Assembly (NCBI GenBank): GCA_044892505.1
Contig: CM097882.1
Location: 153,202,001-153,266,000, forward strand
Origin: Schmidtea nova
Lineage: Eukaryota
Direction: 5' to 3'
DNA: 64,000 bases
Made by a program: the position numbers and the translations under genes. Under the pieces are notes generated by a model. It saw only the letters and a program-made list of their open reading frames with translations. It did no database searches and was not told the DNA's origin. Below, piece after piece: positions 2,076 through 35,689 of this stretch; position 1 is the first letter of the stretch; every line of letters begins with the position of its first letter.

Positions 2076-2941
2076 AGTAGTACCATATGGGCTATCTACA
2101 CCACCAGTGCCCCCCCTCCCACTACCCCCCCCCCCCCCCGAAATTTTTTTTTTTTTTTTTTGAAATTTTTGAATTTTAAGGTCAAATTTTTACGCCATTT
2201 TGAATTTTAAGGTCAAATTTTTACGCCATTTTGAATTTTAAGGTCAAATTTTTACGCCATTTTGAAATTTAAGGTCAAATTTTTACGCCATTTTGAATTT
2301 TAAAGTTAATTTTGTACGCCATTTTGAATTTTAAGGTTAATTTTGTACGCCATTTTGAATTTTAAGGTTAATTTTTACGCCATTTTGAATTTCAAGGTCA
2401 AAGTGGTGTTAAAAATCAAAATTTTGTCGGCCATTTTGTTTTTCAAGTGGTGTTAAAAATCAAAATATTGTCGGCCATTTTGAATCGGCCATTTTGTTTT
2501 TCAAGTGGTGTTAAAAATCAAAATATTGTCGGCCATTTTGAATCGTCCATTTTGTTTTTCAAGTGGTGTTTAAAATCAAAATATTGTCGGCCATTTTGAA
2601 TTTTAAGGTTAATTTTCTACGCCATTTTGAATTTCAAGGTCAAAGTGGTGTTAAAAATCAAAATATTGTTGGCCATTTTGAATCGGCCATTTTGTTTTTC
2701 AAGTGGTGTTAAAAATCAAAATATTGTCGGCCATTTTGAATCAGCCATTTTGATTCTGCCATTTTGAATCGGCCATTTTGTTTTTCAAGTGGTGTTAAAA
2801 ATCAAAATATTGTCGGCCATTTTGAATCGGCCATTTTGTTTTCAAGTGGTGTTAAAAATCAAAATATTTTCAATGTCAAAGTGGTGTTAAAAAACCAAAA
2901 TATTTAGCGAATTTTTTCTATTACATTATTATCTAGATACT
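2076..2941 (+). repeat. Left terminal inverted repeat of the Maverick, built of ~31-bp and ~57-bp tandem units
   Basis: Reverse complement of 12330-12965 from the terminus to ...TTACATTATTATCTAGATAC. Units are TTTTGAATTTTAAGGTCAAATTTTTACGCCA and TTTTGTTTTTCAAGTGGTGTTAAAAATCAAAATATTGTCGGCCATTTTGAATCGGCCA; copy number differs between the two TIRs. Confidence 0.95.
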
Positions 2942-3324
2942 AGTACCATATGGGCTATCTACACCACCAGTGCCCCCCTCTCCCTACCCCCCCCCCCCCC
3001 GAATTTTTTTTTTTTTTTTGAAATTTTTGAATTTTAAGGTCAAATTTTTACGCCATTTTGAATTTTAAGGTCAAATTTTTACGCCATTTTGAATTTTAAG
3101 GTCAAAATTTTACGCCATTTTGAATTTTAAAGTTAATTTTGTACGCCATTTTGAATTTTAAGGTTTATTTTGTACGCCATTTTGAATTTTAATGTTAATT
3201 TTGTTCGCCATTTTGAATTTTAAGGTTAATTTTGTATGCCATTTTGAATTTTAAGGTTAATTTTTACGCCATTTTGAATTTCAAGGTCAAAGTGGTGTTA
3301 AAAATCAAAATATTGTCGGCCATT
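2942..3324 (+). repeat. Second, partial tandem copy of the left TIR
   Basis: Restarts at TAGTACCATATGGGCTATCTACACC (2941-2965), repeats the C-tract and the 31-bp units, and breaks off at ...TATTGTCGGCCATT (3324). Confidence 0.9.
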
Positions 3325-3340
3325 CTTAACAAATTCTTAC

Positions 3341-3906
3341 ATTTGTTTATTCTTCCTAAATTAGTCGTGGATCGATCATTTAGTCTTCCGCCATTATTAT
3401 TTTTCAGAGTTCTATCAATATTAATTCCTACTAAAAAAGTGATATAAAATATAACTATGAAGTAATAATTAAATTTACCATTCGATCCGTTTACAATAAT
3501 TTCATTAGATCCATTTACGTTAACTATGTTTCCATTTATGTTTCGTTTAATTCCTATTAAAAAGTGATATAAAATATAACTATAAAATAATAATTAAATT
3601 TACCATTCGATTCGTTTACAATTACTTCATCCGATCCATGTACAATAATTCCGCTTCCATTTATGTTTCGGTTAATTACTAATAAAAATTGATATAAAAT
3701 ACCAATTTTAAAATAATAATTAAATTTACCATTCGATCTGTTAGGGTTAAATACATTTGATACGTTTATTCTATTCGTTCTACTAGCATTTTCCAAATTA
3801 TTAATTTCTAAATAATGAATAACAATAATAATAAATAAAAAATAATAAAATACTTACCATTAACATTCTTGTTGTTGTTAATATTAGTGTTTCTGTAGTT
3901 TGACAT
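3341..3906 (-). CDS. Predicted multi-exon Asn-rich repeat protein (5 exons, 3'-truncated); not in the ORF track
   Basis: Exons 3906-3858, 3807-3730, 3678-3604, 3553-3479 and 3427-3341 are separated by 50, 51, 50 and 51-nt GT-AG introns, all phase 1. They splice into an open frame: MSNYRNTNINNNKNVNEINNLENASRTNRINVSNVFNPNRSNVINRNINGSGIIVHGSDEVIVNESNGIKRNINGNIVNVNGSNEIIVNGSNGINIDRTLKNNNGGRLNDRSTTNLGRINK. A fifth donor GTAAGA at 3340 is also phase 1. Confidence 0.7.
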
Positions 3907-4240
3907 AATTAATTAATTAAATATATTTTATATTTCGAATTTTATGATATAGTAAAAAGTGATTAAATTAATGAAAACATCTCTTTATATATCAGCTATT
4001 GCATAATATTTATTCAGCCAATTAAAATCGATTATAACTAAATAATTTTACACTCGCACACATATGTACCGTCACACACATGATATGTTTATCGTCATAC
4101 ACACGGAATGTACATTCACACATAATTAGTCATTCATTGTGACCGCAGAGGTCATGCATTTGAATTGCAATAACGAAATATTGTTAAATAATAATAATAA
4201 AAATAATAATAATTGCAAAAACAATTTATTACAAAAACAT

Positions 4241-4660
4241 TTAATTTTTTAAATAATCTAATACACCCACCAAACAACATTTATAAGCACAGTTTGTATG
4301 ATCACGATATGGGCATGAGATATTGTCTGGAAAATCTTCGATTTCTTTAATATTATATTTGATTAATCTTAGATTGGGAAAGTAACTCTTCAAAACAGTA
4401 AGTTTGTCTTGATTAGTGACATAGAAAATTGCACCAACATCTTCGATTTCATTCAAAATACACTTTGGACAAAAGCTATCTTCTCCTTCATACCATTCCA
4501 ATCGATCGGATTCACCAATTCCAGCCCAAAAAGGAACATCATTATATATCCAATACTTTGGTCGAAAAATATTATTTACATTCATAATACATAGTTCCTT
4601 AATAATTAACCCACCTGCATTATCATTATAACCATAAATATCAATAAAATAACAAGTCAT
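4241..4660 (-). CDS. Maverick accessory protein, possible degenerate DnaQ/DEDD-like fold with C-terminal Cys/His cluster (139 aa from ATG 4660)
   Basis: MTCYFIDIYGY...IIKELCI...LEWYEG...QDKLTVLKSYF...CPYRDHTNCAYKC resembles the D-x-E-G-F...KEL...W..G...K...L...C..H...CA pattern I recall from Maverick accessory ORFs. The expected catalytic Glu is replaced by Tyr. The function is inference. Confidence 0.5.
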   Translation of the reverse strand: MTCYFIDIYGYNDNAGGLIIKELCIMNVNNIFRPKYWIYNDVPFWAGIGESDRLEWYEGEDSFCPKCILNEIEDVGAIFYVTNQDKLTVLKSYFPNLRLIKYNIKEIEDFPDNISCPYRDHTNCAYKCCLVGVLDYLKN

Positions 4661-4694
4661 CTTTTTTATAAAAACATTTATTAAACTACATTGT

Positions 4695-5078
4695 TTATAC
4701 TTTGAACATAGAATTAAGCCATGCAAGGCAATGTTGACCACAAGTAATTGTTAATGGATGTTGATACCGAATTCGATTATATACAATAGGTTTACCTAAA
4801 GTTTGAAGTTTACTAACTAATAAACTTGGATAGTAACATCCGAATGGATCAAATGCATATACTTTGATTGGTTTCACATATACAGCAATCCAATGTTCAC
4901 CACCTAAAGTAGATGATTGAGTATTGACGACCATGGCTTGATTTATATCTAAATAAGGGATTTTATCTAGTGGATAGACGCCAATAAATTCATTTCCCAA
5001 TAATTGTTTTCCAATTCGATTAACCTGAATAGAACTAGATAAATAGATTTATTTGATAAATAATAAAACTTACTCCAT
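4695..5078 (-). CDS. Adenain-like cysteine protease (virion maturation protease) with a 39-nt intron at 5035-5073
   Basis: Catalytic motifs GEHWIA, FDPFG and YQ...TCGQHC. ATG-GA|GTAAGT...CTAG|T-TCT splices to MDSIQVNRIGKQLLGNEFIGVYPLD; unspliced, the frame stops immediately (ATG GAG TAA). Confidence 0.92.
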
Positions 5079-5119
5079 AACAAATTGTTAACTTAAACTT
5101 ATACATTTATAATGGTAGT

Positions 5120-6341
5120 TTAAACCAAAACTGTTCGATTGGCAGTAATTTGGATTTCATTTTCAAATACTCCATATATTATTACATGTACTGGTTCTTC
5201 ATTAGCTTTAGAAAACTTTATATCCAATCTCAAATTTCCATTTTGAGGTAATTGACTTTGATTTAAATCGAAATCCGGAGCCAAAACAAATGTAAAGAAA
5301 GGGTATTTGTTTTTTAAAATCGGCTAGTGTTATAACACAATTCAAATTCTTATCTAAATATCCCATATTTCTGACCATCGACTGCATATATGTAGTACAA
5401 TAATTATCATTTTCGAAATCTTGAGTATATGTTTCTCGATAATCAGTGTTTTTCGATAGAGATAGAGAAGTTACATTGAAATGTTTAAATTTCGAACTTG
5501 ATGCAGTATATGATCCATTGTATTGAGTTTCACTTTGAAATGCGACCAAAATAAAATTAGGCATTCTTCGATCGCCGAATATTTGTTCTTTGTAGAAAGA
5601 TGATGCACCTTTACCAATAGCGAATTGCACTATTTCTTTGGTTTTCATTGGATAAATTGCATGTTTTGAATTAAGTCCAACTTGATGTCCAGCTAATACA
5701 GATTGTTCAACACGAACACGACGAATCATTAATTTTGCATCAACTAATTGACATTTTGGTGCTCCACTTTTAGAATATAGTGATAATGCAGAATCTGATC
5801 GCTTCAGTCTGATGTGAACATTGACACCAGGAAGTAAATATTTCGGCTGATCCATGAAATCCAGTTGTAGGGAAGAACACATTGTGAATAGCTTTGAGCC
5901 TTTGATCCACGCTTTTCTCTCGTCAGAATCTCCATATCCCATTGGAGTAAGACAAGTTTCTTTGGTATCACCATTATAATTTAAAATAGTTTCGATTATT
6001 GCCTTGTGTGCATAAGTATTGTTTCCACCTTCAATCTTAATATTATTAAAACCAAGAATTGCGTCCTTGAAAAGAGTATGAAACATGAAATTGTTTGGTA
6101 TAACATCATCAGTTGCAGACAAATCTTTTTTATCGGCATTTACTACTTTTACTTGAACAGTTAGTAAAGTATCATTCAAATCCAAATATTCAGATTGAGA
6201 TCCGTTAATATAAAATTCAACATCATTTCTACCGTCTGTAATAGAATTCATGGGAAATACTTCTTCAAATGCTCCATATTCAATAACTGCTTGAGGTGAT
6301 GGTCGGTCAAAAAGACATAATTCAGATTTACCACAAATCAT
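5120..6341 (-). CDS. Double jelly-roll major capsid protein (hexon-like), with one frameshift at ~5310-5315
   Basis: Maverick MCP motifs: ELCLF, VEFYI...YLDLNDTLL, FLDFMDQPKYLLPGVNVHIRLKR, LMIRRVRV, MPNFILVAF. Removing one A from the A6 run restores the C-terminus KNKYPFFTFVLAPDFD...GNLRLDIKF...HVIIYGVFENEIQITANRTVLV* ending at 5120. Confidence 0.92.
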
Positions 6342-6724
6342 TTTGCAAATATAGTTCCATGTCCTTTCATTCGATTGTTTATATACCTTCGATGCTTTTT
6401 ACGTCTAGGCCCCACTTGTTCAGGTTCAGGTTCATCTTTATTAAACATACTTGCAACATTATGAATCATACTAGTCACAGTAGGCAAGACTTTACCAATG
6501 GCAGACAAAGCATTTGTTTTCAATGATGGTAATATTTTCTGATCATTCATGATGACATCTTTGGCAGTTTTTAAACCAAAACTACCGATTCTCTTAAGAA
6601 TTGGGAGTGCAAATCGCCCTATAGTTTTTAACCAACCTGATCCATACTGTTTACCAGCAAAATAAGGTAATTCACCACCAGTTTGGCTATTACTATACAA
6701 TGAAATTATATCTGGATTAATCAT
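6338..6724 (-). CDS. Small virion protein with adenain-type cleavage sites and an amphipathic helix (pVI/core-like)
   Basis: QTGG-ELPYFAG-KQYGSG-WLKTIGRFALPILKRIG; basic C-terminus RRKKHRR and MKGH|G. It lies directly upstream of, and overlaps, the MCP start. Confidence 0.75.
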   Translation of the reverse strand: MINPDIISLYSNSQTGGELPYFAGKQYGSGWLKTIGRFALPILKRIGSFGLKTAKDVIMNDQKILPSLKTNALSAIGKVLPTVTSMIHNVASMFNKDEPEPEQVGPRRKKHRRYINNRMKGHGTIFAK

Positions 6725-7764
6725 TTAATTTACGAAAATGTAATGTCAAATGTGTTTTTGAATCTTTTGGAAAATTTATTAATTTACCACTATCGTCACG
6801 GATATTTATTTCTATATTGTTTATACATGAAGTAGAAATAGGTAAATACATTGGATTATCCATTACTATTTGTACAACTTCATCCTGTTCATATTTGTCG
6901 ATCCATACAGATTTCAGTAGAGGAACCAGAGAATCACCGACAATTATTGGTTCAATAATGTTACTGTAAATGAACATTTGTTAATGATGAACAAGTATTT
7001 TTGGTTTCACAGTCCCATCAATAAGGTTTCGATCTCTATAAGTTTGTTTATTTAATCCTAAAGTATTGACCAAGTTTTTATCGAATGTAACTTCGCTAAT
7101 ATTATCGTTGAGACTGAATTGAAACCATTTGTTAATCTCTAGAGTTTTAAAGATATGGGAGCAGTTGAATGATAAATATTTAGATAAATCTTCCAATTGC
7201 ACTATATACAAATCATTTGCAAATGTAAATGTTTCTTCAATTTCTGCATCATAAGATATTGTTATCTTAATATCTTCTTTCAAATAACTATTCGGTTCAA
7301 ATAACACGAACTTTAATTGATATTCTTTCAGTTTACTTACAATTTTGAGTTGATTACTTCCCATTCGTTTTGCTTCTTCAATATTTTCAAATGTAATTGT
7401 ATATGGAGTAAAGTCGCAATTAATATTTAAACATCCATTATTGTAAAACATACTACAATGAGCAGCCAGATTCTGATTAGGAATTTTATAGAATCTATCA
7501 AAGTTGTTGATAATGAAAAGACCACTACATGTTATAGTTTCAATTCTCTTGTAATCAATCTTACATTGACTATAAAAATGGAAATGTATTGTACACAAAC
7601 GTGAAATCTTGCAATGCAACTTCCCAATTACCATCTAAATAAATCGGATTTTGAAGATTGACCATGAATTTACTGGCTTCATTATCTGGATGTATTAATG
7701 GACAGCTATTACTCGGTAATATAGTATAAAAATTCACTTTACTAGGTCTTTTGATGATATCCAT
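6717..7764 (-). pseudogene. Minor capsid protein (penton, single jelly-roll), split into three ORFs by a frameshift (~7573-7577) and an in-frame stop (6981-6983)
   Basis: N-terminus FYTILPSNS...PDNEASKFMVNLQNPIYLDGNWEVALQD and C-terminus MFIYSNIIEPIIVGDSLVPLLK...YLPI...INNIEINIRDDSG...HLTLHFRK are Maverick penton motifs. TAA-CAA-ATG joins ORFs 6981-7634 and 6717-6977 in the same frame. Confidence 0.85.
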
Positions 7765-8788
7765 GAAGGGTTTTGATATCCATGCCACGTTACGTAGTAT
7801 TGTTTATCCTTACCCACCATTTTAGTTTTTAATATTTTTTGAATTCTAAATACAGTACGCGGAGGAATAACTTGTAATTCTTGCTCGTAAAATTTCCCCC
7901 TAACTACATTATTGTCAGAGTCAGAAATAACATACATGACACGGTCTTGGCTAGTATTAATTTTTGAGATCTGAAATACCTCATCACTCCAATTACTATC
8001 AAAATTTTTGATGAATGGCGAAGCGCTAATCTTGCTAATTCGAACATGATCACCAATTTTATATTTCGGTTTATTTATACTAGTTGTTAATTTGTGAGAT
8101 CCAGTATTTTTCGTTGAAACATCAACAGGTCTCAATCCATTTATACCTTTATGTGACGAATGATTATAACTATGTATTATTTTTGGCAATACATTAATCC
8201 ATGTTTTATTACCTTGATGTACAAAATACTTTTTCAAACGATCTCTTAATGTACGATAAAATCGTTCAACATGGGCTGCTTTGAATTGAGAAAACACAGA
8301 GTAATGATTAATCCCGGCCAAAACTTCTTTAACTTTACTATTGTAAAATTCTTTACCTAAATTATAATTAAAAATGTATAGAATAAGTATATATTCTTAC
8401 CCAAATCAGTTTGTAAGTTTTTTGGACGACCGGATTTAAACATAGTTTTCATTGCAATAGCCATTTCATTTGCTGATTTAGTTTTGGTAGGAATAGCACG
8501 GGCAAATCTATTGAAGACATCGATACATGTTAAAATATATTTATATCCCTTGTTAATATTTGAATAGGGAATCATTTCCATCAAATCCATTTGCCACAAG
8601 TCGTTAATACCATATGTTTTATATGTTCTTGTTGGAAATCTTTTCAATGCTGGTTTGTTTAGACTGTATGCCAGTTGACCCGATAACCATTTTTGAGTCT
8701 CTTTTGTCGAGTTTGGGACTTTTTTCTTTAGCTTTTCGACTCCACCGAAACCGGCGGGATCTTTTGGGTTTGTCCATATCTTCTCCAT
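7734..8788 (-). CDS. Retroviral-like (c-int) integrase with C-terminal chromodomain and a 44-nt intron at 8357-8400
   Basis: WQMDLMEM, TCIDVFNRFA, LQTD..., VERFYRTLR (DDE core) and FRIQKIL...YYVTWHGY...SWI (chromodomain). Splicing TTGG|GTAAGA...TTTAG|GTAAAGAA gives LQTDLGKEFYNSKVKEVLAGINHY, joining the two track ORFs. Confidence 0.95.
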
Positions 8789-8852
8789 TGCAACAAGAAG
8801 AATTAAAATTTAATTTAAGATTAGGTAAATGACCAATCGGTAATTGACCCAT
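8619..8852 (-). CDS. Small basic ORF (77 aa, MG start, SCC) overlapping the integrase 5' end in another frame
   Basis: ATG in ACAATGG context, 3 nt after the stop of the upstream gene: MGQLPIGHLP...SSCCNG...KPKRSRRFRWSRKAK. No homology recognised. Confidence 0.35.
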   Translation of the reverse strand: MGQLPIGHLPNLKLNFNSSCCNGEDMDKPKRSRRFRWSRKAKEKSPKLDKRDSKMVIGSTGIQSKQTSIEKISNKNI

Positions 8853-8855
8853 TGT

Positions 8856-9401
8856 TTATGATGTTGAGGGTTTTCCTAGTAATCCTACACCACCTAATAA
8901 AGATAGTGCTAATGGTAACAATGTCGCAATAAAACCTCCATGTTGTTTATATATTATTTTTCGCATTTGTTTTTTATTTTTAGTATTTACGAGCGATAAT
9001 AATGGTTTCTTATGTTTGTTCAAAACAGTTTTATTTGATTTACTAATATTGATTTTACCTTTTACCACTTTAACTATAACATCAAGTAAATCATCAATTA
9101 CGTAATTGGGAAATGATTGTAAAATACTCATTCTTCTAATGCTTGGAGCCTTGAGTAATGCATTAAAAAACGGAAAACTGCGATGATTTTTAGATTTTTT
9201 ATTTATAGATTCCTTTGGAGCCTTTGACGTTTTTGGTTTTGAATTATGTGAAATAAGATTCATTCTTGGAAAATTTTCGGTGATTAATGTTTTAGGGGGT
9301 GTGAAACTAGTTTTAGACGGAATTATTGTTTCACGATTCTTTTTAATAACTTTTCTAAGTTTAGATAACTTTGGTTGTTTGGTACGTGCTTTAAGTATCA
9401 T
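8856..9401 (-). CDS. Lys-rich virion core-like protein with C-terminal cleavage motif and hydrophobic helix (ATG 9401)
   Basis: Highly basic. IDDLLDVIVKVVKGKI...HKKPLLSL...KQHGG|FIATLLPLALSLLGG matches the conserved Maverick protein normally found between ATPase and integrase. Confidence 0.75.
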   Translation of the reverse strand: MILKARTKQPKLSKLRKVIKKNRETIIPSKTSFTPPKTLITENFPRMNLISHNSKPKTSKAPKESINKKSKNHRSFPFFNALLKAPSIRRMSILQSFPNYVIDDLLDVIVKVVKGKINISKSNKTVLNKHKKPLLSLVNTKNKKQMRKIIYKQHGGFIATLLPLALSLLGGVGLLGKPSTS

Positions 9402-9422
9402 GATTAATTTCAAACATGATTT

Positions 9423-10046
9423 TTAACTTTGTTTATAAACCATGGCTCCTTCTTTGTTAAAAATATCGGTTCTAACACGTAATTCATCACTACATTGTTG
9501 AGTATAGTCAAGAAAAATATAACCATGTGGGACTTTAGTTGCATCTTGAAATGCATTGATCAAAAAATTTCGATTATTAGGGTAAGCCTGTCTTGCAAGA
9601 AAATCAATAACTGTGGCATCTCTAGGATTTTTAAAAATAACTAGATATTGAACATTTAAATTTCGAGTCCGATGACTGCCACCCTGATGAAATAAATTTT
9701 GAGTAATAAAAATAATTGTAACACCCTTGTGTCTTGCGATTTTTGTAAATAAATTATTAAAATCCTTTTCTTTATTTGCTTCTTGATACAAATCATCGAT
9801 AATAATCACATCACCACTTCGTAATCTAGACGACCAGTTTTTTTCAAATCCCTTTATTATTGTCATTTTAATCTTGCAGAATTGATCTTGAGTCATTCCA
9901 TGTTCATCATCAGCTCCCCTATGCCAATAAATTTTGTTAAACTTTGATTTGAATAATTTTGATTGTAATAATTTACAAACAAATAATGTTTTTCCACTTC
10001 CACTTGGACCTACAATTTGATAAACTGCATCATTTCTTAATTCCAT
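9423..10046 (-). CDS. A32/FtsK-like genome-packaging ATPase
   Basis: Walker A GPSGSGKT, Walker B IIIDD, ARHKG..IIFITQNLF and YLVIFKNPRD. First ATG is at 10046. Confidence 0.95.
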   Translation of the reverse strand: MELRNDAVYQIVGPSGSGKTLFVCKLLQSKLFKSKFNKIYWHRGADDEHGMTQDQFCKIKMTIIKGFEKNWSSRLRSGDVIIIDDLYQEANKEKDFNNLFTKIARHKGVTIIFITQNLFHQGGSHRTRNLNVQYLVIFKNPRDATVIDFLARQAYPNNRNFLINAFQDATKVPHGYIFLDYTQQCSDELRVRTDIFNKEGAMVYKQS

Positions 10047-10141
10047 TTTCAAATATTAATTGTTTATTGTTATTGTTTATATTTGTTTAAATTCATTATT
10101 TTACTTTTATCAAAATTATTTGAAAAATACTCAGTTAAATA

Positions 10142-10612
10142 ATGTTAAGCAACATAAATTACAAAGGCAGATGTTGTGTTTCCCATATGAAATTTCCAAA
10201 TGGTAAACCACAACAAATTGTGGATAGGAGTGGAAAGTATCCAATTATATTTTTCAAGTCAGGGAAATGTAGAATAATGGGATGTAAACAGTCTCTTAAA
10301 CCTGAAGATTTATTTTACGAAATAAATGATTTGCAAATACAATCAATTACAGTTACTACAGATATTGGAAATTGTGTCAATCTACACGAATTATCAAGAA
10401 ACATTGATTGTCTATTTGAACCAGAAATATTTCCGGCATTGAGATATACTAAGTATAACCCTTTATGTGTTAATATATTCAACAGTGGTAAAGTAGTTAT
10501 ACTTGGTATAAAAACATTAAACTATCAGGATTTGATTGATGAAATTATTAACGACATCAAATCAGTGATTGATGACGTGGAAATTTTGAATTTTTTATTA
10601 CTCATTGTATAA
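10142..10612 (+). CDS. TATA-binding-protein-like protein encoded inside the Maverick
   Basis: Two TBP half-repeats: IIFFKSGKCRIMG (cf. LIFSSGKMVCTG) and IQSITVTTDIG...NLHEL...FEPEIFPALRY...VNIFNSGKVVILG (cf. IQNMVGSCDV...YEPELFPGLIY...LIFVSGKVVLTG). Confidence 0.85.
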   Translation: MLSNINYKGRCCVSHMKFPNGKPQQIVDRSGKYPIIFFKSGKCRIMGCKQSLKPEDLFYEINDLQIQSITVTTDIGNCVNLHELSRNIDCLFEPEIFPALRYTKYNPLCVNIFNSGKVVILGIKTLNYQDLIDEIINDIKSVIDDVEILNFLLLIV

Positions 10613-10786
10613 TTACATAATAAAATACTTGATTTTGATTGGTTGACGGTGTGTTGAAATATTTAGTATATAACGCAGTTAATTTCATTAGATTTATATC
10701 AACAAAATGTCTTTAAATATGTCTAATGGTAAGAATCGATTATTTTATAGATATTTTTAACATTTTCATTCGTTTAAGATAAACTG

Positions 10787-11056
10787 ATGAGTGTTCTCAT
10801 TTCAAAGATGGAGGATCTATACCCTAAACTGATGCGAGAACTTGTATATTGTGCTCCGGAGCTCCTGCCATATAAGATTCAAGCTATTACCGGCATCGAT
10901 CTTAATGAAGTCCTGGCAGAACATCTACACAACTTAGATGATGATCTACCGAGCTGCAGCGCAAACATTGTCTGTGCATATAGATGTGATAGTTGTCTCT
11001 ATAGGACACAGAAATATCACAAGTGGCTACTACGAAAAGAACTTAGAAAATTATAA
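10787..11056 (+). CDS. Unknown 89-aa protein with Cys cluster (CSANIVCAYRCDSC)
   Basis: ATG-initiated ORF with higher GC than its flanks, inside the element and co-oriented with the TBP-like gene. Confidence 0.55.
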   Translation: MSVLISKMEDLYPKLMRELVYCAPELLPYKIQAITGIDLNEVLAEHLHNLDDDLPSCSANIVCAYRCDSCLYRTQKYHKWLLRKELRKL

Positions 11057-11508
11057 TTATTAATTTTATGGTAATAAATGTTTAGAAAGTGTTATAGTGT
11101 TTAATATTTGTTTACAACCTATTTTTATTGTTTAAGTCTTGTATGACTTTATTTAAGAGTTTTATATCATTGTTTTATTAGTGGAAAATAAAATTTATTT
11201 CTAGAAATTGAATTTATTGATGTAGTCATTTTAGTAATTTTTATTGGTGGAAAATTAAAAAAGTAATTTTAGGAATTAGTTTTTATATTTGTTTTATAAT
11301 TATTAAACTCATTGAAACTATATTTAAAAAATCATTAGCAATAGAGATGCAAAACATATGCAAAACATGTGCATGACATTAGTCATGAATGCACACAAAG
11401 GTCATGAACTTGCAAACATAATGTGTAATTCATATGAACGAATTTCATTGGATGCACACAAAAAATAACGAGTATAAATACAAGGATAAATTTATATATC
11501 ATCATAAA

Positions 11509-11958
11509 ATGCAATCTGTTTTCAGTTTCCAGAAATCAAGCCCAATCAAGAAAATATTTGAGGAGTCGAATGAAAATTCAAAGAAAATTAAACCAAATGT
11601 CAAACCCGTTCAAATGTTTCATGAACATCAAATGTTTTTCTTGGAAAAGGAAATTGAATTCAAATTCATTCATCCAGTTAATTTAGTCAAGTCACAATAT
11701 TCAAATTTTATGGGGAAAATATATAAACAAGATGTTGTTGCTGTTAATAAAGTTCTGATGAAAATCAATAAAAATTTGACATGTAATGAAAATGTATTCT
11801 TCAACAATCGTAACAGCCGATATCATGATGACTTTCAACCAATAGAATATAAAGATCATGAAAATTGGTTTATTTCTATTACAATTCAAGGATATAAAAT
11901 AGATGCTAAGGATGTTATGTCACCCATTTGGAGAATCGATAGCGCTAGACTTGCTTAA
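11509..11958 (+). CDS. Unknown Maverick protein (~149 aa), possibly an OB-fold ssDNA-binding protein
   Basis: Open ORF. The start is placed at ATG 11509 because the relic paralog shares atcataaaATG and a TATAAATA box lies at 11473-11480. The C-terminal ISITIQGYK...SPIWRI is reminiscent of viral SSB OB-fold ends (weak inference). Confidence 0.65.
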   Translation: MQSVFSFQKSSPIKKIFEESNENSKKIKPNVKPVQMFHEHQMFFLEKEIEFKFIHPVNLVKSQYSNFMGKIYKQDVVAVNKVLMKINKNLTCNENVFFNNRNSRYHDDFQPIEYKDHENWFISITIQGYKIDAKDVMSPIWRIDSARLA

Positions 11959-12329
11959 AATTTTTAATATATTTTTAATAAATGTTTAGTATATTTCATT
12001 TGTTGTCTTTTAAATAGTGAGCTGTGTATTTCTTTTATAGTTAACAGTGGTAAATATAGTGACTTGTGGTTCTTATATATAATAATAATTTGTATTATAT
12101 ATAATTATTATTATATAATAATAATAATTGCCAAATAATCGAAATATAATTTGTAATATAATAATTATATATAATAATAATGTGATAATTTTATTGTACT
12201 GTGAAGTAATTGTTTTAAGAATTAATAAATCTACTATTAAAATTGTAAGGTAAATAATTTTTTATTGTGCTAAATTTTTATTAACATTGAAAAATGAAGT
12301 TCTCGAAATACTTACCACAAATCATGCGA

Positions 12330-12965
12330 GTATCTAGATAATAATGTAATAGAAAAAATTCGCTAAATATTTTGGTTTTTTAACACCACTTTGACATTGA
12401 AAATATTTTGATTTTTAACACCACTTGAAAACAAAATGGCCGACTCAAAATGGCCGATTCAAAATGGCCGACAATATTTTGATTTTTAACACCACTTGAA
12501 AACAAAATGGCCGATTCAAAATGGCCGACAATATTTTGATTTTTAACACCACTTGAAAAACAAAATGGCCGGTTCAAAATGGCCGACAATATTTTGATTT
12601 TTAACACCACTTTGACCTTGAAATTCAAAATGGCGTAGAAAATTAACGTTAAAATTCAAAATGGCGTAGAAAATTAACTTTAAAATTCAAAATGGCGTAG
12701 TAAATTAACCTTAAAATTCAAAATGGCGTAGAAAATTAACTTTAAAATTCAAAATGGCGTAGAAAATTAACCTTAAAATTCAAAATGACGTACAAAATTA
12801 ACTTTAAAATTCAAAATGGCGTAAAACTTTGACCTTAAAATTCAAAATGGCGTAAAAATGTGACCTTAAAATTCAAAAATTTTAAAAAAAAAATTTAAAA
12901 AAATTCGGGGGGGGGGGTAGGGGGAGGGGGGCACTGGTGGTGTAGATAGCCCATATGGTACTTCT
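12330..12965 (-). repeat. Right terminal inverted repeat of the Maverick
   Basis: Reverse complement of the left TIR, with fewer repeat units. It has a G-tract at 12907-12931, and the terminus reads AGAAGT instead of AGTAGT. Confidence 0.95.
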
Positions 12966-13118
12966 GACGTCAATAATGACGTTATAAAAAAATATTAAAA
13001 AAATTTTGTGGGATGAGGGGTGTGCAAATATAATTATTAAAGGGACTCGAGTTATGGAAGAGGCTCGCTCGATTTTCATTGGTTATGAGTCATCGATGGC
13101 GTCATTTGATTTGTCGTA

Positions 13119-26908: not shown

Positions 26909-27234
26909 ATAATTATTATTATTATTATTATTATTATTAATAATAATATTAATATTTAGTTTTATTTTGTGTTAGGTTTTCGGAGCAAATATTCAAAAAA
27001 GCATTTGATTTTAGTGAAAATCATTACCAGATATTTTTATATAAAATTGAGACATTTTCTAATGTCAAATTAATATCTTTAATATTTTTATTATTAGTAA
27101 TATTCAATATATTCCTTGGTAACAATTCAATTTTTTTAAAATGACTATATTATTAATTAATTTATTAATATATGAAGCAAAGAAGACTGATTCTTACTAA
27201 TTTACCCTGTTTGACAATGACGTTCAAATGGTAG

Positions 27235-28228
27235 TTATTATAGTCTATGCGCGGTTGCAATTTGTGTTTTTAATTTGTTCTATGCGTGAATGTAGAGAAG
27301 AGTTGTAGATCCCGAGAGAGTCCGACGTTATTAATGTGCCGACACTCGGGGTGTGTGCTGTGTCGTGCGATTACAGTGATAATAATACAACAATTAAATC
27401 TAAAAAGGTGTATATGCTATTATAAAATAAACTGAACTAATATTAATTTACTAAAATTTATTATGAACAGGACAATAAAAAAACCACGAAAAAGTTACTT
27501 TTGGGTGTGTTAACACGGGGAAATATATCTACTGGAACAAAATCTTTTGATAATTTATCCTGGAAATCTTTTTATAGTTTCTTTTAATAAAATTTTATTT
27601 TGGCTCGGATTATAGCGATAAGCTCGGAAATTAATTCTGGAAGAGATCGTCTTTTAATAAAAATTTATTTTAACTCGGATTATAACAATAAGTTCGGAAA
27701 TTAGTTCTGGAAGGGATCTTCTTTTTATAAAAATTTATTTTAGTTCGGTTTATAACAATAAGTTCGGAAATTAATTCTGGAAGGGATCTTCTTTTTATAA
27801 AAATTTATTTTAGTTCGGATTATAGCGATAAGCTCGGAGATTAATTCTGGAAGAGATCTTCTTTTAATAAAATTTATTTTAATTCGGATTATAGCAATCT
27901 GTTCGGAAATTGATACTGAAAGGGATCTTCTGTTGTAATTTTCTTTTACAATTTATTGCAAACAATATTTAATTTTTCTTCCCCAAAAAAAATCGATTTA
28001 ATTAATTTGTGATTTGGCTTACTATAGCAAATTGCTATAGTAAGCCAAATTCAAATTTTAAATAAAAATAATTATAATAATTACAATAATAAAAATAAAT
28101 ATTAACAAGCATAATAAAATATGGGGGGGCCCAGGTGACCGCAAAGGCACCGTCCATAACAATGACGGCGCTTATAACCTCACCAGCAAATAAACATCTA
28201 AAACTGACAATAAAATGTGACATTCACA
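27235..28228 (-). repeat. 3' LTR (TGTGAATG...ATAATAA) with ~63-bp internal tandem repeats and a 37-nt palindrome
   Basis: Starts after the PPT AAAGGGGGAAGT plus TA. About five copies of AAAATTTATTTTAGTTCGGATTATAACAATAAGTTCGGAAATTAATTCTGGAAGGGATCTTCTTTTTAT lie at ~27590-27920. Confidence 0.92.
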
Positions 28229-28474
28229 TAACTTCCCCCTTTAAAACCGGAGGTTAACAAGAGAATAAAAATTAACAGATTAACCATGTTGACAACTTGT
28301 TTTTGTTGTTTTGTTTTATTTTGTTTTGTTTTTGTATTTGTTTTGTTGTTTTTATAACGTCTTAACCATAACATTTACATATTTACACGAAAATAAAACT
28401 GTACATTTCACTGTGTTGTGCTTGTGTTTATTTGTGTTTTATTTAAAGCATTATCTGTATTGTTTTTTTTTGGG

Positions 28475-31400
28475 CTAGGCTGTGTGAGGCGTTGAGTGTA
28501 AATTTTGATTGTTGTAATGGTAGGGTTTTAGTCTGCGGATGTTGACTCTAACTTTTCGGTTGTTTATCACTAATGTCCCCACGTTTTTGTCTAATTCGAG
28601 AAGTTTGTAAGGGCCTTCATATTTCGATTCGAAACCACTGGTAAAAGGTTTTTTTATTAAAACCATATCGACCCTTAAATTTGTTTTGGTTTGTTTGTTG
28701 TCATTGTCCATTAAGACTCCTTTTGGTTCATTCTGGGATGTAAGTGTTCTGTTTTTGTAAGTTTTATCGGGGTTTTTGTAGTTATCTATTAAATTTGGGA
28801 GGTTTGTTGAATGCCCGAAAGTTAATTGGCTTGGGCTTTTGTTCGTTAAGGAGGATGGGTTATTTCGTAAACCAATTAGGATTTCTGGGAGTTTTTCTAA
28901 CCAGTTTCTGTCATCGGCTTTAGTCCGGATCGCTTGTTTTAAGGATCTGTGCAATCTTTCCACTTTGCCGTTTGACTGTGGGTTATAGGCTGTTGTTCGG
29001 ACTTTTTTTATTTTATATTTTGAGCACAATCCTTTGAATAAGTCTGACTCGAATTGTCTGCCTTGATCACTGATAATTGTTTTTGGACATCCGTATCTCG
29101 CAAACCAGTTTATTTCCAGTTTTCTGCAAATTGTTGCTGCTGAGATCTCTTTGATTGGGATTGCCTCAAACCAGTTGGTGTATCGGTCTATTATTGTCAA
29201 TAGGTATTTTTGTTTGTTGTTAGGTGGTAATGGGCCCACTATGTCTATATGTATTGTTTGGAAAGGTTCTGTTTTTGGGAATTCAATTTTTGTTGTTTTG
29301 AATTTTGTTGTTATTTTGTTTTTCTGGCAGTTTATACATGAGCTTACGTATTCTTTGATGTCCTTCCTCATGTTCGGCCATACTACTTTTGTATGCATGA
29401 GTTCGTATGTAGCTTTCGTTCCTGGGTGGTATATGTTGTGAAATTGTTTTATTAGTTCAGTTCTGTGTTCCTCAGGTACTATTAGTCTTATGTTGTGTTC
29501 GTTAGAGACGTCGTACCAAATTCCATCAATCTCTTTTAGTATTAATGAGTTGAGTTTTGGGAAGTTATTTATTGTTCTTTCTTGTTTGTTTCTCATTGTT
29601 TCTTGATTCACTGTTGGAATCATGCTGATGGCGTTTGTTTCTGTTTCGATTCGCGAGAGGGTATCTGCGCATATGTTTGCGGCTCCTGCTATATATTTTA
29701 TTTCGCAATTGAATTGTGAAATGTAATTTAACTGTCTTATTTGCCTTGGTGATGGTAATTTCATGTTCATTGCGTTTACTAGGGGTTTGTGGTCTGTATA
29801 CACTTCAAATTCTTTCCCTTCTAAGAGGTATTGAAAGTGTTTTATTGTATCATGTACCGCCAGCAGCTCCCTGTCAAAAGTGGAATATCGCATTTGGTGG
29901 GTTTTGAGTTTTTTTGAGTAAAATGCGATGGGTTTTTTTTCGTTATGTTTTTCTTGGTATATTGTACCTCCCATTGCTGTTCCAGAGCAATCAGTGTTGA
30001 GGATGTATGTTAAGTTTGGGTCAGGGTAGTTTAATAGACTTGTGTTGGATAGGTTTGTTTTTGCCTTTTCGAAAACCCTTTCTAGTTGTTTGTTCCAGTT
30101 GATTTTAATGTTTCTTTTGTTGGTGTTTAAGTCGTTTAGTGGTGCGAGTATCTCGGTGCACTTTGGGATGTGTTTGTGGTAAAAGTTTATCATTCCCATA
30201 AAACGTCTTAATTCTCTTGTTGTTTTGGGGAGTGGAAATTCTTTGATGGCCTTTATTTTGTCGTCTAGAGGTCTTGTTCCATTTCCGTTAAGGATATGTC
30301 CCAAAAACCTGACTTCCTGTTTTAAGAATTCGCACTTCTTTATATTAATTTTGAGATCGTGGTTGTTGAGGGTGTTTAGAACTTCCGTGATGTCCTGCAT
30401 GTGTTCGGTTTTGTTTGTTGATGCGATTAGGATGTCGTCTAAATACGCTACCGTATTCCTGTGGTTTCTCAGGATTTGGTCCATGAACCTTTGGAAAGTT
30501 GCGGCTGCGTTTTTTAAACCGAATGGCATTCGGTTGTATTCATATAACCCGATCGGTGTTATTATTGCAGTTTTTTTTACGTCTTCTTCACGCACCGGAA
30601 TTTGGTGATACGCCTTTTGCAGGTCGATTTTACTGAAATATTTTGGATTATGTATCCTGTTTATGATGTCGTTGATTATTGGTATAGGGTATTTGTCAGG
30701 TATTGTAATATTGTTCAAAGCTCTGTAATCTCCGCATGCTCTCCATTCGCCATTTGCTTTTTCTTTTAGCATCAGTGCGGATGACCAGTTGGAATCTGAA
30801 TGTTGAATGATTCTGTTTTCCAATAGATCGTCGAAGATTTCTTTGGTTATTGTGAGTTTTTTGTTGTCCAGTTGTCTTACTTTGGCGTGGACAGGGTTAC
30901 CATTTGTTATGATGGCGTGTTTTGTGATGCATTTATTTGTGGTTTCTATTGATAGTTTATCAGTGATTGTAGGGTAGTTTTTGAGTAATTCTTTGATTTC
31001 TTTTGGGATGGAATTGTCTGCGTTTGTTTTTTCGCATTTTGTTATATTTTTAGTTTGTAATCCTTCAGTTTGTATTTTTTTTGTGTTTGCGGTTATTACC
31101 CCGATGTCACAATTTGTTAAGGTTTTTAGGTTTTCTTGGTTAGGTTTGTTGTTTGGGTATTTTTCTGTTTCGGAAGTATTTTGTATTATTTTTTTATTTC
31201 GGCAGTCTACTAACAAGTTATATTTCGCTAGGAAATCGGCTCCTACAATGGCCTGTTTCACGTCGGCGATGATGAATTCCCAATTGTAGTTTGTCTTGTT
31301 TATATTAATGGTTAGTTGCTGTTTGCCGTAGGTTTTGATGTTGCTGCCATTTGCTGCGCACAGGTTGTAGTTTCCTTCTTTTAAGGATTGGTATAAATAA

Positions 31401-31558
31401 CTTGGTAACAAACTAACTATTGAACCGGAATCAACGAGAAAATTTATATTGTTGCTTTGCACCGTGAATGTTTCGTAGTCGCCGAATGTCGGTGCTGTCA
31501 TTGGCGACTTTAATTGTGTTCCGGCTTTTTGTTGTGGAAAGCACAAGGTGCGTTGCAC
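28475..31558 (-). CDS. pol: Pol polyprotein (PR-RT-RNaseH-IN), intact
   Basis: PR LVDSGS; RT CGDYRALN, KIDLQKAYHQI, YLDD; RNase H TDCSG, ELLAV, TDHKPL; IN H-H-C-C, HIDIVGP, SDQGRQFES, GKVERLH. It overlaps the gag end in the -1 frame. Confidence 0.97.
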   Translation of the reverse strand: MQRTLCFPQQKAGTQLKSPMTAPTFGDYETFTVQSNNINFLVDSGSIVSLLPSYLYQSLKEGNYNLCAANGSNIKTYGKQQLTININKTNYNWEFIIADVKQAIVGADFLAKYNLLVDCRNKKIIQNTSETEKYPNNKPNQENLKTLTNCDIGVITANTKKIQTEGLQTKNITKCEKTNADNSIPKEIKELLKNYPTITDKLSIETTNKCITKHAIITNGNPVHAKVRQLDNKKLTITKEIFDDLLENRIIQHSDSNWSSALMLKEKANGEWRACGDYRALNNITIPDKYPIPIINDIINRIHNPKYFSKIDLQKAYHQIPVREEDVKKTAIITPIGLYEYNRMPFGLKNAAATFQRFMDQILRNHRNTVAYLDDILIASTNKTEHMQDITEVLNTLNNHDLKINIKKCEFLKQEVRFLGHILNGNGTRPLDDKIKAIKEFPLPKTTRELRRFMGMINFYHKHIPKCTEILAPLNDLNTNKRNIKINWNKQLERVFEKAKTNLSNTSLLNYPDPNLTYILNTDCSGTAMGGTIYQEKHNEKKPIAFYSKKLKTHQMRYSTFDRELLAVHDTIKHFQYLLEGKEFEVYTDHKPLVNAMNMKLPSPRQIRQLNYISQFNCEIKYIAGAANICADTLSRIETETNAISMIPTVNQETMRNKQERTINNFPKLNSLILKEIDGIWYDVSNEHNIRLIVPEEHRTELIKQFHNIYHPGTKATYELMHTKVVWPNMRKDIKEYVSSCINCQKNKITTKFKTTKIEFPKTEPFQTIHIDIVGPLPPNNKQKYLLTIIDRYTNWFEAIPIKEISAATICRKLEINWFARYGCPKTIISDQGRQFESDLFKGLCSKYKIKKVRTTAYNPQSNGKVERLHRSLKQAIRTKADDRNWLEKLPEILIGLRNNPSSLTNKSPSQLTFGHSTNLPNLIDNYKNPDKTYKNRTLTSQNEPKGVLMDNDNKQTKTNLRVDMVLIKKPFTSGFESKYEGPYKLLELDKNVGTLVINNRKVRVNIRRLKPYHYNNQNLHSTPHTA

Positions 31559-32511
31559 TTGAAAGCCTTGTCCCCAAATCTATTGTGAAAATAACACCAA
31601 TTTTCATTTGTTATGTAGTTGTTGTTCGTGTTAATGTATCGGTTCAAATTTGGTTTTTGCTCTGTGGGGTTGTTGTAGTTATTTTGGTAACGGTTAAAGT
31701 ATGGGTTTTGTTCTGTACGGTTGTTTTGATTGAGCTGGTTCCTTTTTGTTTCTCTTGTTTGTGCCTCTTGTAAATCGTTTCGGAGGTTCTTGTTTTCTAT
31801 TAAGACCTCGTCGACTTTCTTTATTAACGAGTTAAGTAGAAGGTTGGTATCGTTGTTAGGGTTATCTCGTTTTTGGCAGTCTTCTTGCTTATTTTCCCAT
31901 GGGTGCTGTTTTCGGTATGTTTTACAAACCGCTGGGAATAATTCATCATTTATTTTGTCCGCGATATCGGCTATTTTGTCAAGGTCGGTGGTGTCATTTG
32001 CGGCTAAAATGCGTCTTATTTCTTGTGGCATAGCCCTCATGAATAAGTCCTTTACGAATTCGCTCGATCCCGAGCTTGTTATTTTAGGTTGTAGGAATTC
32101 CAGTTTTGTTTTAAGGTGCCTTAAAAATTCGCTAGGTTTGTCGCTTCCTAGCTGAATGTCTTTTAGGCAAGATTCTAGTATTTCCCTCCTGTTTATCTTA
32201 TTTCTGTTCAATAAGGTCGAGTATAATGTTTCGAATGGGTCATTATTTTTTTCTATTTCTTTTATCCTGTCGCCGATTTCATTTAGTATGTTGCTTGGCA
32301 ATGCGGCGATTATGTGGGCGCATAGTGTTTTTGATGACTTGATTCCCGATAGAGTCAGTGTTAGTTTGGCAAACTCTAACCATTTTTGCAGGGTTCCGTT
32401 TTCATCGGTAAGAAAATTGGGGATGTTTGCTTTAGGGTTGATGATTGAGTTTATGGTGCTATGGTCGAGTGGTGTTTGTGAATTGTTTGAGTTTGTTTGG
32501 TTTGATGCCAT
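31510..32511 (-). CDS. gag: Gag with CHCC zinc knuckle
   Basis: Capsid-like core (QLGSDKPSEFLRHL, FMRAMPQEIRRILA, IADIADKI) and C-terminal CYFHNRFGDKAFKCNAPC, the CHCC motif of CsRn1-clade gypsies. Confidence 0.93.
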   Translation of the reverse strand: MASNQTNSNNSQTPLDHSTINSIINPKANIPNFLTDENGTLQKWLEFAKLTLTLSGIKSSKTLCAHIIAALPSNILNEIGDRIKEIEKNNDPFETLYSTLLNRNKINRREILESCLKDIQLGSDKPSEFLRHLKTKLEFLQPKITSSGSSEFVKDLFMRAMPQEIRRILAANDTTDLDKIADIADKINDELFPAVCKTYRKQHPWENKQEDCQKRDNPNNDTNLLLNSLIKKVDEVLIENKNLRNDLQEAQTRETKRNQLNQNNRTEQNPYFNRYQNNYNNPTEQKPNLNRYINTNNNYITNENWCYFHNRFGDKAFKCNAPCAFHNKKPEHN

Positions 32512-32685
32512 TTCTATATTCTTGCTGTTTGTTTATGTGAAAAAAAATGAGATTGGTTGAAGGATATAGCCTACTGTGTTCGGCTAACAGAGTCAACTAT
32601 CCTTTATAGCTCTATCTAATAGCTATTCTAAAAGGCGTAGTGATTGAAATAACAATATTCGGCGATTGTGTGTTATATTTTTTTG

Positions 32686-32697
32686 CTTCTGACACCA
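32686..32697 (-). promoter_or_regulatory. Primer binding site complementary to the tRNA-Leu 3' end
   Basis: The minus strand reads TGGTGTCAGAAG one base after the LTR end. It is complementary to ...CTTCTGACACCA, the 3' end of eukaryotic tRNA-Leu(CAA). Confidence 0.9.
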
Positions 32698-33311
32698 GTT
32701 ATTATAGTCTATGCGCGGTTGCAATTTGTGTTTTTAATTTGTTGTATGCGTGAATGTAGAGAAGAGTTGTAGATCCCGAGAGAGTCCGACGTTATTAATG
32801 TGCCGACACTCGGGGTGTGTGCTGTGTCGTGCGATTACAGTGATAATAATACAACAATTAAATCTAAAAAGGTGTATATGCTATTATAAAATAAACTGAA
32901 CTAATATTAATTTACTAAAATTTATTATGAACAGGACAATAAAAAAACCACGAAAAAGTTACTTTTGGGTGTGTTAACACGGGGAAATATATCTACTGGA
33001 ACAAAATCTTTTGATAATTTATCCTGGAAATCTTTTTATAGTTTCTTTTAATAAAATTTTATTTTGGCTCGGATTATAGCGATTAATTAATATTAATTAA
33101 TATTAGTAAATTAATATTAGTTCAGTTTATTTTATAATAGCATATACACCTTTTTAGATTTAATTGTTGTATTATTAACACTGTAACCGCACGACACAGC
33201 ACACACCCCGAGTGTCGGCACATTAATAACGTCGGACTCTCTCGGGATCTACAACTCTTCTCTACATTCACGCATACAACAAATTAAAAACACAAATTGT
33301 AACAGCACATA

Positions 33312-33344
33312 GAGGCGTGGGTTCAAATCCCACTTCTGACACCA
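33312..33344 (+). other. Reverse-transcribed 3' fragment of mature tRNA-Leu (T-arm, acceptor strand, CCA); not a tRNA gene
   Basis: GAGGCGTGGG-TTCAAAT-CCCAC-TTCTGACA-CCA has a perfect T-stem and T-loop and ends in CCA; it is embedded between inverted LTR fragments. Confidence 0.9.
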
Positions 33345-34075
33345 CCTTCCAGAATTAATTTCCAAACTTATTGTTATAATCCGAACTAAAATAAATTTTT
33401 ATAAAAAGAAGATCCCTTCCAGAACTAATTTCCGAACTTATTGTTATAATCCGAGTTAAAATAAATTTTTATTAAAAGACGATCTCTTCCAGAATTAATT
33501 TCCGAGCTTATTGCTATAATCCGAGCCAAAATAAAATTATATTAAAAGAAACTATAAAAAGATTTCCAGGATAAATTATCAAAAGATTTTGTTCCAGTAG
33601 ATATATTTCCCCGTGTTAACACACCCAAAAGTAACTTTTTCGTGGTTTTTTATTGTCCTGTTCATAATAAATTTTAGTAAATTAATATTAGTTCAGTTTA
33701 TTTTATAATAGCATATACACCTTTTTAGATTTAATTGTTGTATTATTATCACTGTAATCGCACGACACAGCACACACCCGAGTGTCGGCACATTAATAAC
33801 GTCGGACTCTCTCGGGATCTACAACTCTTCTCTACATTATTATTATGAAATTACATGAAATTACCATCACCAAGGCAAATAAGACAGTTAAATTACATTT
33901 CACAATTCAAAATAATAAAAATAAATATTAACAAGCACAATAAAATATGGGGGGGCCCAGGTGACCGCAAAGGCACCGTCCATAACAATGACGGCGCTTA
34001 TAACCTCACCAGCAAATAAACATCTAAAAATGACAATAAAATGTGACATTCACATAATCTCACTTCTGACACCAG

Positions 34076-35068
34076 TTATTATAATCTATGCGCGGTTGCA
34101 ATTTGTGTTTTTAATTTGTTCTATGCGTGAATGTAGAGAAGAGTTGTAGATCCCGAGAGAGTCCGACGTTATTAATGTGCCGACACTCGGGGTGTGTGCT
34201 GTGTCGTGCGATTACAGTGATAATAATACAACAATTAAATCTAAAAAGGTGTATATGCTATTATAAAATAAACTGAACTAATATTAATTTACTAAAATTT
34301 ATTATGAACAGGACAATAAAAAAACCACGAAAAAGTTACTTTTGGGTGTGTTAACACGGGGAAATATATCTACTGGAACAAAATCTTTTGATAATTTATC
34401 CTGGAAATCTTTTGATAGTTTCTTTTAATAAAATTTTATTTTGGCTCGGATTATAGCGATAAGCTCGGAAATTAATTCTGGAAGAGATCGTCTTTTAATA
34501 AAAATTTATTTTAACTCGGATTATAACAATAAGTTCGGAAATTAGTTCTGGAAGGGATCTTCTTTTTATAAAAATTTATTTTAGTTCGGATTATAACAAT
34601 AAGTTCGGAAATTAATTCTGGAAGGGATCTTCTTTTTATAAAAATTTATTTTAGTTCGGATTATAGCGATAAGCTCGGAGATTAATTCTGGAAGAGATCT
34701 TCTTTTAATAAAATTTATTTTAATTCGGATTATAGCAATCTGTTCGGAAATTGATACTGAAAGGGATCTTCTGTTGTAATTTTCTTTTACAATTTATTGC
34801 AAACAATATTTAATTTTTCTTCCCCAAAAAAAATCGATTTAATTAATTTGTGATTTGGCTTACTATAGCAAATTGCTATAGTAAGCCAAATTCAAATTTT
34901 AAATAAAAATAATTATAATAATTACAATAATAAAAATAAATATTAACAAGCATAATAAAATATGGGGGGCCCAGGTGACCGCAAAGGCACCGTCCATAAC
35001 AATGACGGCGCTTATAACCTCACCAGCAAATAAACATCTAAAACTGACAATAAAATGTGACATTCACA
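34076..35068 (-). repeat. Outermost 5' LTR
   Basis: Near-identical to 27235-28228 (only a few substitutions and indels by eye); followed by TSD GTAG. Confidence 0.92.
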
Positions 35069-35689
35069 GTAGTCAACAGAATTTATTAGTCCGTCATTGG
35101 AAAGAATTGAAGGTGACTATAATTACTTTTGATAATAAATAAAATATATTTAAAAAAAATCATTTTTTAATTGTCAAAGTCCAAAATATTTTTTTGTTAG
35201 TGCAAACATGGTTTACCCCTATAGACTTATTACTTTTAATTATTTACTTGTTAGTGTTAACTTAAAAATTATTACTACTTAATATAATTTAATAATTTCA
35301 TATGAAGATCTCTGATTAGCTTTTGTTTAAATAAATGGTTTTGCTTAAATAAATATTTTGTTTAAATAAATGGTTTTAGTAATATATTTATATTAATTTA
35401 GAAAAAATAAGAATAAATATAGAAAAGGTTTTTTGCACTAATTTACAAGAATTATTTTGTAGCATTTCTTGTATAATATTTACTATTTTGAATTATAAAT
35501 GGATAAGATTACTGTTTTTTTGAATAACAATTAGAACAAATTATTTTACAAATGCAGTAAGAATATAAAAATAAAATTTAAAGTGGTGACTCTTGATAAA
35601 TTTTTTTTAATATTCGATAAATTAGATAATCAAAATACTGTATGAAAAATGTTAACAATTTTAACCAAATATTATACTATCGTATATTT

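Follow-up and report, generated by a model that had tools for sequence, protein, structure and literature searches.

A predicted spliced, asparagine-rich repeat gene, probably cut short, in a Maverick/Polinton element of Schmidtea nova

Can what looks like AT-rich spacer inside a virus-like element be a gene that is read only once its introns are removed? The question is raised by positions 3341-3906 of a 64,000-nucleotide stretch of Schmidtea nova DNA (contig CM097882.1, 153,202,001 to 153,266,000, forward strand), which was analysed as a whole and is referred to here as the window. A sequence-only reading of this stretch had proposed five exons on the minus strand, joined across short introns into one open, asparagine-rich frame. 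The exons, their sizes, the GT-AG introns, their phases and the single open frame are recovered exactly from the sequence. The exons measure 49, 78, 75, 75 and 87 nt, have a G+C content of 27-33% and are all open in the spliced frame; the introns measure 50, 51, 50 and 51 nt, run from GT to AG, are 84-90% A+T and all fall in phase 1. In window positions, the predicted parts of the gene are as follows.

3906-3858, minus strand: exon 1, 49 nt, with its ATG at 3906, an in-frame stop three codons 5' of that ATG, and no signal peptide
3857-3808, minus strand: intron 1, 50 nt, GTAAGT..TTTAG, outside the 125-bp array described below
3807-3730, minus strand: exon 2, 78 nt, the 3' end of which is a member of the repeat family
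3729-3679, minus strand: intron 2, 51 nt, a paralogue of introns 3 and 4 and without a stop if retained
3678-3604, minus strand: exon 3, 75 nt, with octapeptide repeats
3603-3554, minus strand: intron 3, 50 nt
3553-3479, minus strand: exon 4, 75 nt, a duplicate of exon 3
3478-3428, minus strand: intron 4, 51 nt, or 48 nt if the first AG of the doubled acceptor TAGTAG is used, the frame being kept either way
3427-3341, minus strand: exon 5, 87 nt, without a stop codon and ending at a further phase-1 donor

This chain lies beyond what shuffled sequence yields. The chain finder links four introns at the gene, and at least three were linked in none of 2000 dinucleotide shuffles and two in 1 of 2000. 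The fairer comparison is with the two-intron count, because introns 2-4 are paralogues of each other and the gene therefore holds only two independent complete introns. No chain of more than one intron was found in 12 strand-blocks spanning 13,001-64,000. After base shuffling, the probability that all five exons remain open is 5.5e-6 (7.9e-5 without exon 4), and stops are present in both alternative frames of exons 2-5. Codon positions differ in composition (chi2 = 42.1, matched by 0 of 5000 shuffles), a bias that persists without exon 4 (P = 1.2e-5), and exon lengths differ by multiples of three, intron lengths by single bases. Asparagine takes up 37 of the 117 full codons (121 positions), for which shuffles give a mean of 9.5 and a maximum of 22, and lysine only 4, for which they give a mean of 15.7 and a minimum of 6; this excess and this deficit argue that the composition of the product is not plain A+T bias. 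The exon-intron structure is thus predicted from several properties of the DNA and is very probably real.

The virus-like element in which the gene had been placed is a Maverick/Polinton. It extends from 2076 to 12965 (10.9 kb), with long terminal inverted repeats and a 6-bp target duplication, GACGTC, and carries the following features.

2076-2941, no strand: left terminal inverted repeat, beginning AGTAGT and holding 31- and 58-bp arrays, with GACGTC at 2070-2075
4241-4660, minus strand: conserved Maverick ORF of 139 aa, with tblastn matches in related loci
4695-5078, minus strand: adenovirus-type protease (Pfam PF00770, E 1.1e-5), with a 39-nt phase-2 intron at 5073-5035 inside codon 2
5120-6341, minus strand: double jelly-roll major capsid gene, with a frameshift near 5310-5323
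6717-7803, minus strand: probable minor capsid gene, in three pieces, so labelled from its position
7734-8788, minus strand: rve integrase (Pfam PF00665, E 1.2e-8), with a 44-nt phase-1 GT-AG intron at 8400-8357 in the catalytic core
9423-10046, minus strand: A32-type packaging ATPase (Pfam PF04665, E 3e-6)
10142-10612, plus strand: TATA-binding-protein-like ORF (Pfam PF00352, E 9.9e-15), also present in related elements
12329-12965, no strand: right terminal inverted repeat, with GACGTC at 12966-12971

The structural model of the major capsid protein (pLDDT 83.6) has Foldseek matches to the capsids of vaccinia (D13), iridovirus and PBCV-1, the best at E 5e-8. Capsid relatives at E up to 0.001 number 110, the nearest being 85% identical, and 69 metagenome loci were fetched; the long ones among them have the gene order ATPase-integrase-capsids-protease in common. 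Beyond the protease arm, 6 of the 69 loci have a long polymerase-like ORF. The one in L016, which from motifs recognised by eye we take to be a family B polymerase, gave no match when it was searched against the element. Searches of the polymerase-like ORF in Pfam, PHROGs and PDB returned an endonuclease VII domain or nothing; in L016 (10212-14123, minus strand) the ORF carries an inserted endonuclease VII domain. The element in the window thus has the terminal repeats, target duplication, integrase, ATPase, protease and capsid of a Maverick and no polymerase, and is for this reason regarded as a non-autonomous or deleted copy.

Some further observations concern the element's relatives and its surroundings. 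Many relatives of the element also have the TATA-binding-protein-like gene, placed to one side or the other of the core module. Tandem duplication of the probable minor capsid gene is seen in L007 (1393-3469), L015 (560-1830) and L016 (5652-7684). A decayed copy, of about 75% identity, of the region of the ORF at 11434-11958 is found at 1474-1966 on the plus strand, which suggests that the element landed in the terminal part of an older relative. Mariner-, pogo- and gypsy-like elements are also present in the window and, taken with introns of 37-51 nt, would point to an invertebrate host. Among these elements are a Ty3/gypsy element at 27233-35071, with gag and an open pol frame of 1034 codons, whose long repeats hold 70-bp arrays and an inverted block (33094-33651), and two related copies at 39986-40562 and 60214-61410, presumably mariner-like from a motif, which lie in opposite orientation and are about 96% alike over their shared arms. 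No host genes were recognised by eye among 30 filtered ORFs of the window.

The five exons had been taken to make up a complete gene, and this does not hold. There is no stop at 3341 and, instead, a fifth phase-1 donor, GTAAG, leads into a short stub that abuts a repeat.

3340-3325, minus strand: putative stub of a fifth intron, 16 nt, with the GTAAG donor, joining the terminal-repeat copy
2942-3324, no strand: second, partial copy of the element terminus, just inside the full left terminal repeat

The nearest AG beyond the stub is more than 350 nt away. The partial terminus copy has neither its inner half nor a target duplication of its own, the duplication fitting the outer ends only, and the doubled terminus would reflect either a template switch or a misassembly. 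Because the donor at 3341 sits 16 nt before this copy of the repeat, we consider the gene probably truncated here. A single deletion, extending from inside intron 5 to inside the terminal repeat, would have taken away the gene's 3' end together with the polymerase gene that relatives have on this arm, and such an event would explain the cut gene, the missing polymerase and the non-autonomous state of the copy. The alternative to a deletion is a misassembly in the repeats at 3324/3325.

Predicted introns are also found in the conserved genes of the element, since both integrase and protease need the removal of a short GT-AG intron to be read. The protease of the window offers no in-frame start that would avoid the intron. 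The position of its intron (37-47 nt) is common to 12 of the 28 loci that span the end of the capsid gene and the start of the protease (L002, L005, L006, L008, L009, L011, L014, L015, L016, L018, L019 and L020), and in 2 of these 12 another in-frame ATG is available as well. When the 28 loci and the window are placed on a capsid tree, the intron is present in 13 of the 14 rows of a 100/100 clade that includes the window and in 0 of the 15 rows outside it; three near-identical pairs among the carriers reduce them to ten distinct ones. L013 is the sole member of the clade without it. Between protease and polymerase, at about 2100-3275 on the minus strand, L013 has an accessory gene with several intron candidates of 40-55 nt. 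This accessory gene contains Cys-x2-Cys motifs. The integrase intron is missing from all 14 related loci that span its site and would be a recent gain, because all of these are contiguous there. AG/GT-like ends flank it on both sides. No GT-AG insertions of at least 9 codons were seen among 23 long insertions in core genes of the related loci. As predicted from these genes, splicing is a trait of this Maverick lineage, and the conserved-gene introns are the best independent support for the view that those of the asparagine-rich gene are read as well.

The sequence-only reading had also put the growth of the gene down to tandem duplication, of about 125 bp, of exons 3 and 4 with their introns. 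Tandem exon-intron copies of that length are indeed present, and the extent given was too narrow. The array runs from 3421 to 3742 with 2.6 copies of a 125-bp unit, takes in intron 2 and the end of exon 2, and so covers introns 2-4. Growth by duplication of symmetric (phase 1-1) units, each of an exon and an intron, is supported. With every intron in phase 1 and every internal exon divisible by three in length, modules can be gained or lost without harm to the frame, and unequal recombination or polymerase slippage would add or remove whole 25-residue modules with the frame intact. Within the product, residue identity peaks at lags of 8 and 25, which corresponds to an octapeptide nested in the exon unit. 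The repeats that had been written as N-I-N-G-x-I-I-V-x-G-S are therefore present, and are better described by an 8-residue motif resembling [IV]-[IVN]-[VR]-[NH]-G-S-[ND]-[EG], of which each 25-codon exon unit contains about three. A comparison of exons 3 and 4 gives a pN of 0.18 and a pS of 0.19, and purifying selection between repeats is thus not seen; the two exons differ at 14 of 75 bases, compared with 4 of 51 columns for introns 3 and 4 (P = 0.12), which is at most a hint of diversification.

What this product might be is judged here from its residue pattern. Short runs of isoleucine and valine, together with Asn-Gly/Ser turns, fit a beta-roll or fibre-shaft-like repeat. In proteins of this type, such as the ice-binding beta-roll of grasses, the adenovirus fibre shaft and the beta-solenoids of adhesins, aliphatic strands alternate with Asn-Gly/Ser turns; the likeness is one of pattern only, no match in sequence having been found. 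Tentatively, the product may be a non-secreted repeat protein made of short Ile/Val strands and Asn-Gly turns, beta-roll or fibre-shaft-like, and possibly exposed on the virion, the main alternatives being a disordered low-complexity protein and captured cargo. The earlier suggestion that it is glycosylated fares less well. Seven N-x-S/T sequons can be counted, as claimed, and these do not amount to an enrichment (4.5 expected, P = 0.12); the N-terminus shows no signal peptide, and among its first 30 residues no stretch of 11 has a hydropathy above -0.4. The absence of a hydrophobic N-terminus and the chance level of sequons argue against glycosylation as far as the 5' part of the gene is concerned, the 3' part being missing. 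Introns 2 and 4 are in frame and stop-free, and their retention would encode hydrophobic stretches. A structural model of an intron-retaining fragment of 70 residues (pTM 0.39) was not used, a helix over the retained intron dominating it.

Homologue searches returned nothing for the gene. A phmmer search with exon 4, intron 4 and exon 5 against 1.84 billion representative proteins gave no match, nor did two ESM Atlas searches with gene pieces, Pfam searches of six gene pieces, or PDB sequences compared with exons 3 and 4; all of these queries were short and of low complexity, which makes the negative result a weak one. IMG/VR scans gave no match, and no homologue was present among the 22 listed relatives with loci reaching 3.3 kb or more.

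Public data lend weak support to the gene through contigs and variants. Four public runs, from one study and at most two samples, contain 65-69% of the sampled words of the window; their contigs include one that matches 3709-4178 with a single difference and one that matches 3709-4099 exactly. The window itself may derive from these runs, but the contigs argue that the part from exon 1 to intron 2 is no assembly artefact. In run X1, the summed contig depth is 4,636 over 3564-3865 and 380,000-1,560,000 over the core genes, a ratio of about 1% in a measure of depth and not of copy number. A single in-gene variant, at 3383 and silent in the proposed frame, is found among 40 listed variants, with 1493 more beyond these. 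Joints at intron positions and loose ends at 3325-3341 were both absent from the rows listed, beyond which lie 1227 joints and 10433 loose ends. One candidate joint, from 3930 to 11047, was dropped, its 21-letter side being too weak.

With moderate confidence, we take the five exons to be the 5' portion of a genuine accessory gene that the host splices; the Maverick/Polinton lineage to which it belongs would be transcribed in the nucleus and make use of minimal AT-rich GT-AG introns. Much more tentatively, the product might be assembled in the cytosol or nucleus and perhaps end up on the virion surface, its C-terminal part missing here. It is rather unlikely that the gene is instead captured host cargo, bearing introns from its origin and having no virion role, in the manner of the wosp/wasp proteases and krma kinases. 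The position beside the left terminal repeat fits the region described for such cargo (10.1101/2022.07.12.499685), the introns of 50-51 nt are longer than those of the core genes (39 and 44 nt), and the low depth in run X1 would mean that few members of the family carry the gene. However, no cellular homologue was found among the 1.84 billion representatives or in Pfam, the G+C content of the exons is not raised as it is in nematode cargo, and, since core genes of the lineage have introns too, introns are no sign of host origin. We also regard as improbable that the gene is complete, with exon 5 reading through GTAAG, unspliced, to a stop at 3266-3264 and a length of about 146 residues, or that the join at 3324/3325 is a misassembly unrelated to the lack of a polymerase. 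The frame does stay open for 25 codons past 3341, the window contains seven N gaps, and the junction lies in tandem repeats, which are prone to misjoins; but the donor shares its phase with the other four and stands 16 nt before the junction, the read-through tail is encoded by repeat units, and the terminus copy is without its inner half, with a target duplication that fits the outer ends only.

Two other readings have little to commend them. A minisatellite or decayed spacer that codes for nothing, with a single fortuitous GT-AG stretch copied to three, would account for introns 2-4 being a single duplicated sequence, for the want of a homologue and for pN being equal to pS between repeats, but intron 1 and donor 5 are not part of the array and yet are also in phase 1, and neither the codon-position bias that survives the removal of exon 4 nor the contrast between the length steps of exons and introns suits it; we hold it to be very improbable. 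Hardly any weight can be given to a secreted or membrane glycoprotein, anchored by the lost part or via retained intron 2 or 4. Its seven sequons, and the fact that these two introns would be hydrophobic if translated, are offset by the absent signal peptide, by the chance level of the sequons, and by the tendency of T-rich introns to translate as hydrophobic by default.

Splicing is routine in small DNA viruses of the nucleus, and to that extent the gene is less unusual for such a virus than the sequence-only reading had it. What stands of that claim is the mode of growth, as no published description of exon-intron tandem duplication in a Maverick gene was found at the level of titles and abstracts. 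At the same level no description of conserved spliceosomal introns in Maverick core genes was found, and supplementary genome maps might show some. Intron-bearing cargo, by comparison, is described: in nematode Mavericks, as presented in 10.1101/2022.07.12.499685, the core genes are intronless and such cargo lies between left repeat and integrase. The gene studied here resembles that cargo (wasp/wosp, krma) in being a multi-exon gene in a variable region by the left repeat, but whereas the nematode genes have enzyme domains and high G+C, it is an AT-rich orphan repeat that arose by exon-intron duplication.

The element as a whole agrees with animal Mavericks/Polintons, or adintoviruses (PMC8502044, PMC8097293, PMC6431247), in its terminal repeats, 6-bp duplication, integrase, A32 ATPase, protease and capsid, and in the gene order of its relatives; PMC6431247 gives the defining genes and size of Mavericks, and a TBP label appears in a Maverick figure legend of PMC8502044. 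It differs in its length of 10.9 kb, against a typical 15-25 kb, and in having no polymerase gene. The genes of intact vertebrate Mavericks are described as being without introns (PMC8097293), whereas integrase and protease here have GT-AG introns. Closer in this respect are the introner-containing Polinton-like proviruses of dinoflagellates (PMC11957031), in which spliceosomal introns occur inside full-length elements. The dinoflagellate introns, however, are transposon insertions, acquired mostly after integration, whereas three of the introns in the present gene are tandem copies of one another, and that of the protease, unlike introners, has been passed down through a clade whose capsids are 49-58% identical to that of the window. 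The relevant parts of PMC11296320, 10.1101/2023.08.22.554363 and PMC12220804 deal with self-splicing introns only.

The core genes of Mavericks have been described as intronless and annotated by ORF finders, and elements with spliced ones would be scored as broken or missed altogether. The clade-wide intron of the protease and the new one of the integrase would make nuclear splicing a requirement for such elements, and the importance of the present finding rests on the clade-wide protease intron as much as on the asparagine-rich gene. The weight of the latter is limited, as an orphan, probably truncated and predicted from sequence, and it nevertheless would offer a case of intron number rising by exon-intron tandem duplication in a virus-like genome, that is, of directly datable intron gain. 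A bolder and quite unlikely extension would have a whole clade of capsid-encoding Mavericks rely on the splicing machinery of the host even to mature their virions, and vary a virion-exposed beta-repeat protein in length and sequence by symmetric exon-intron duplication, in which case the faster divergence of exons than introns would be diversifying selection. If this were true, these elements would be using the same symmetric duplication of exons and introns by which animals lengthen their extracellular repeat proteins.
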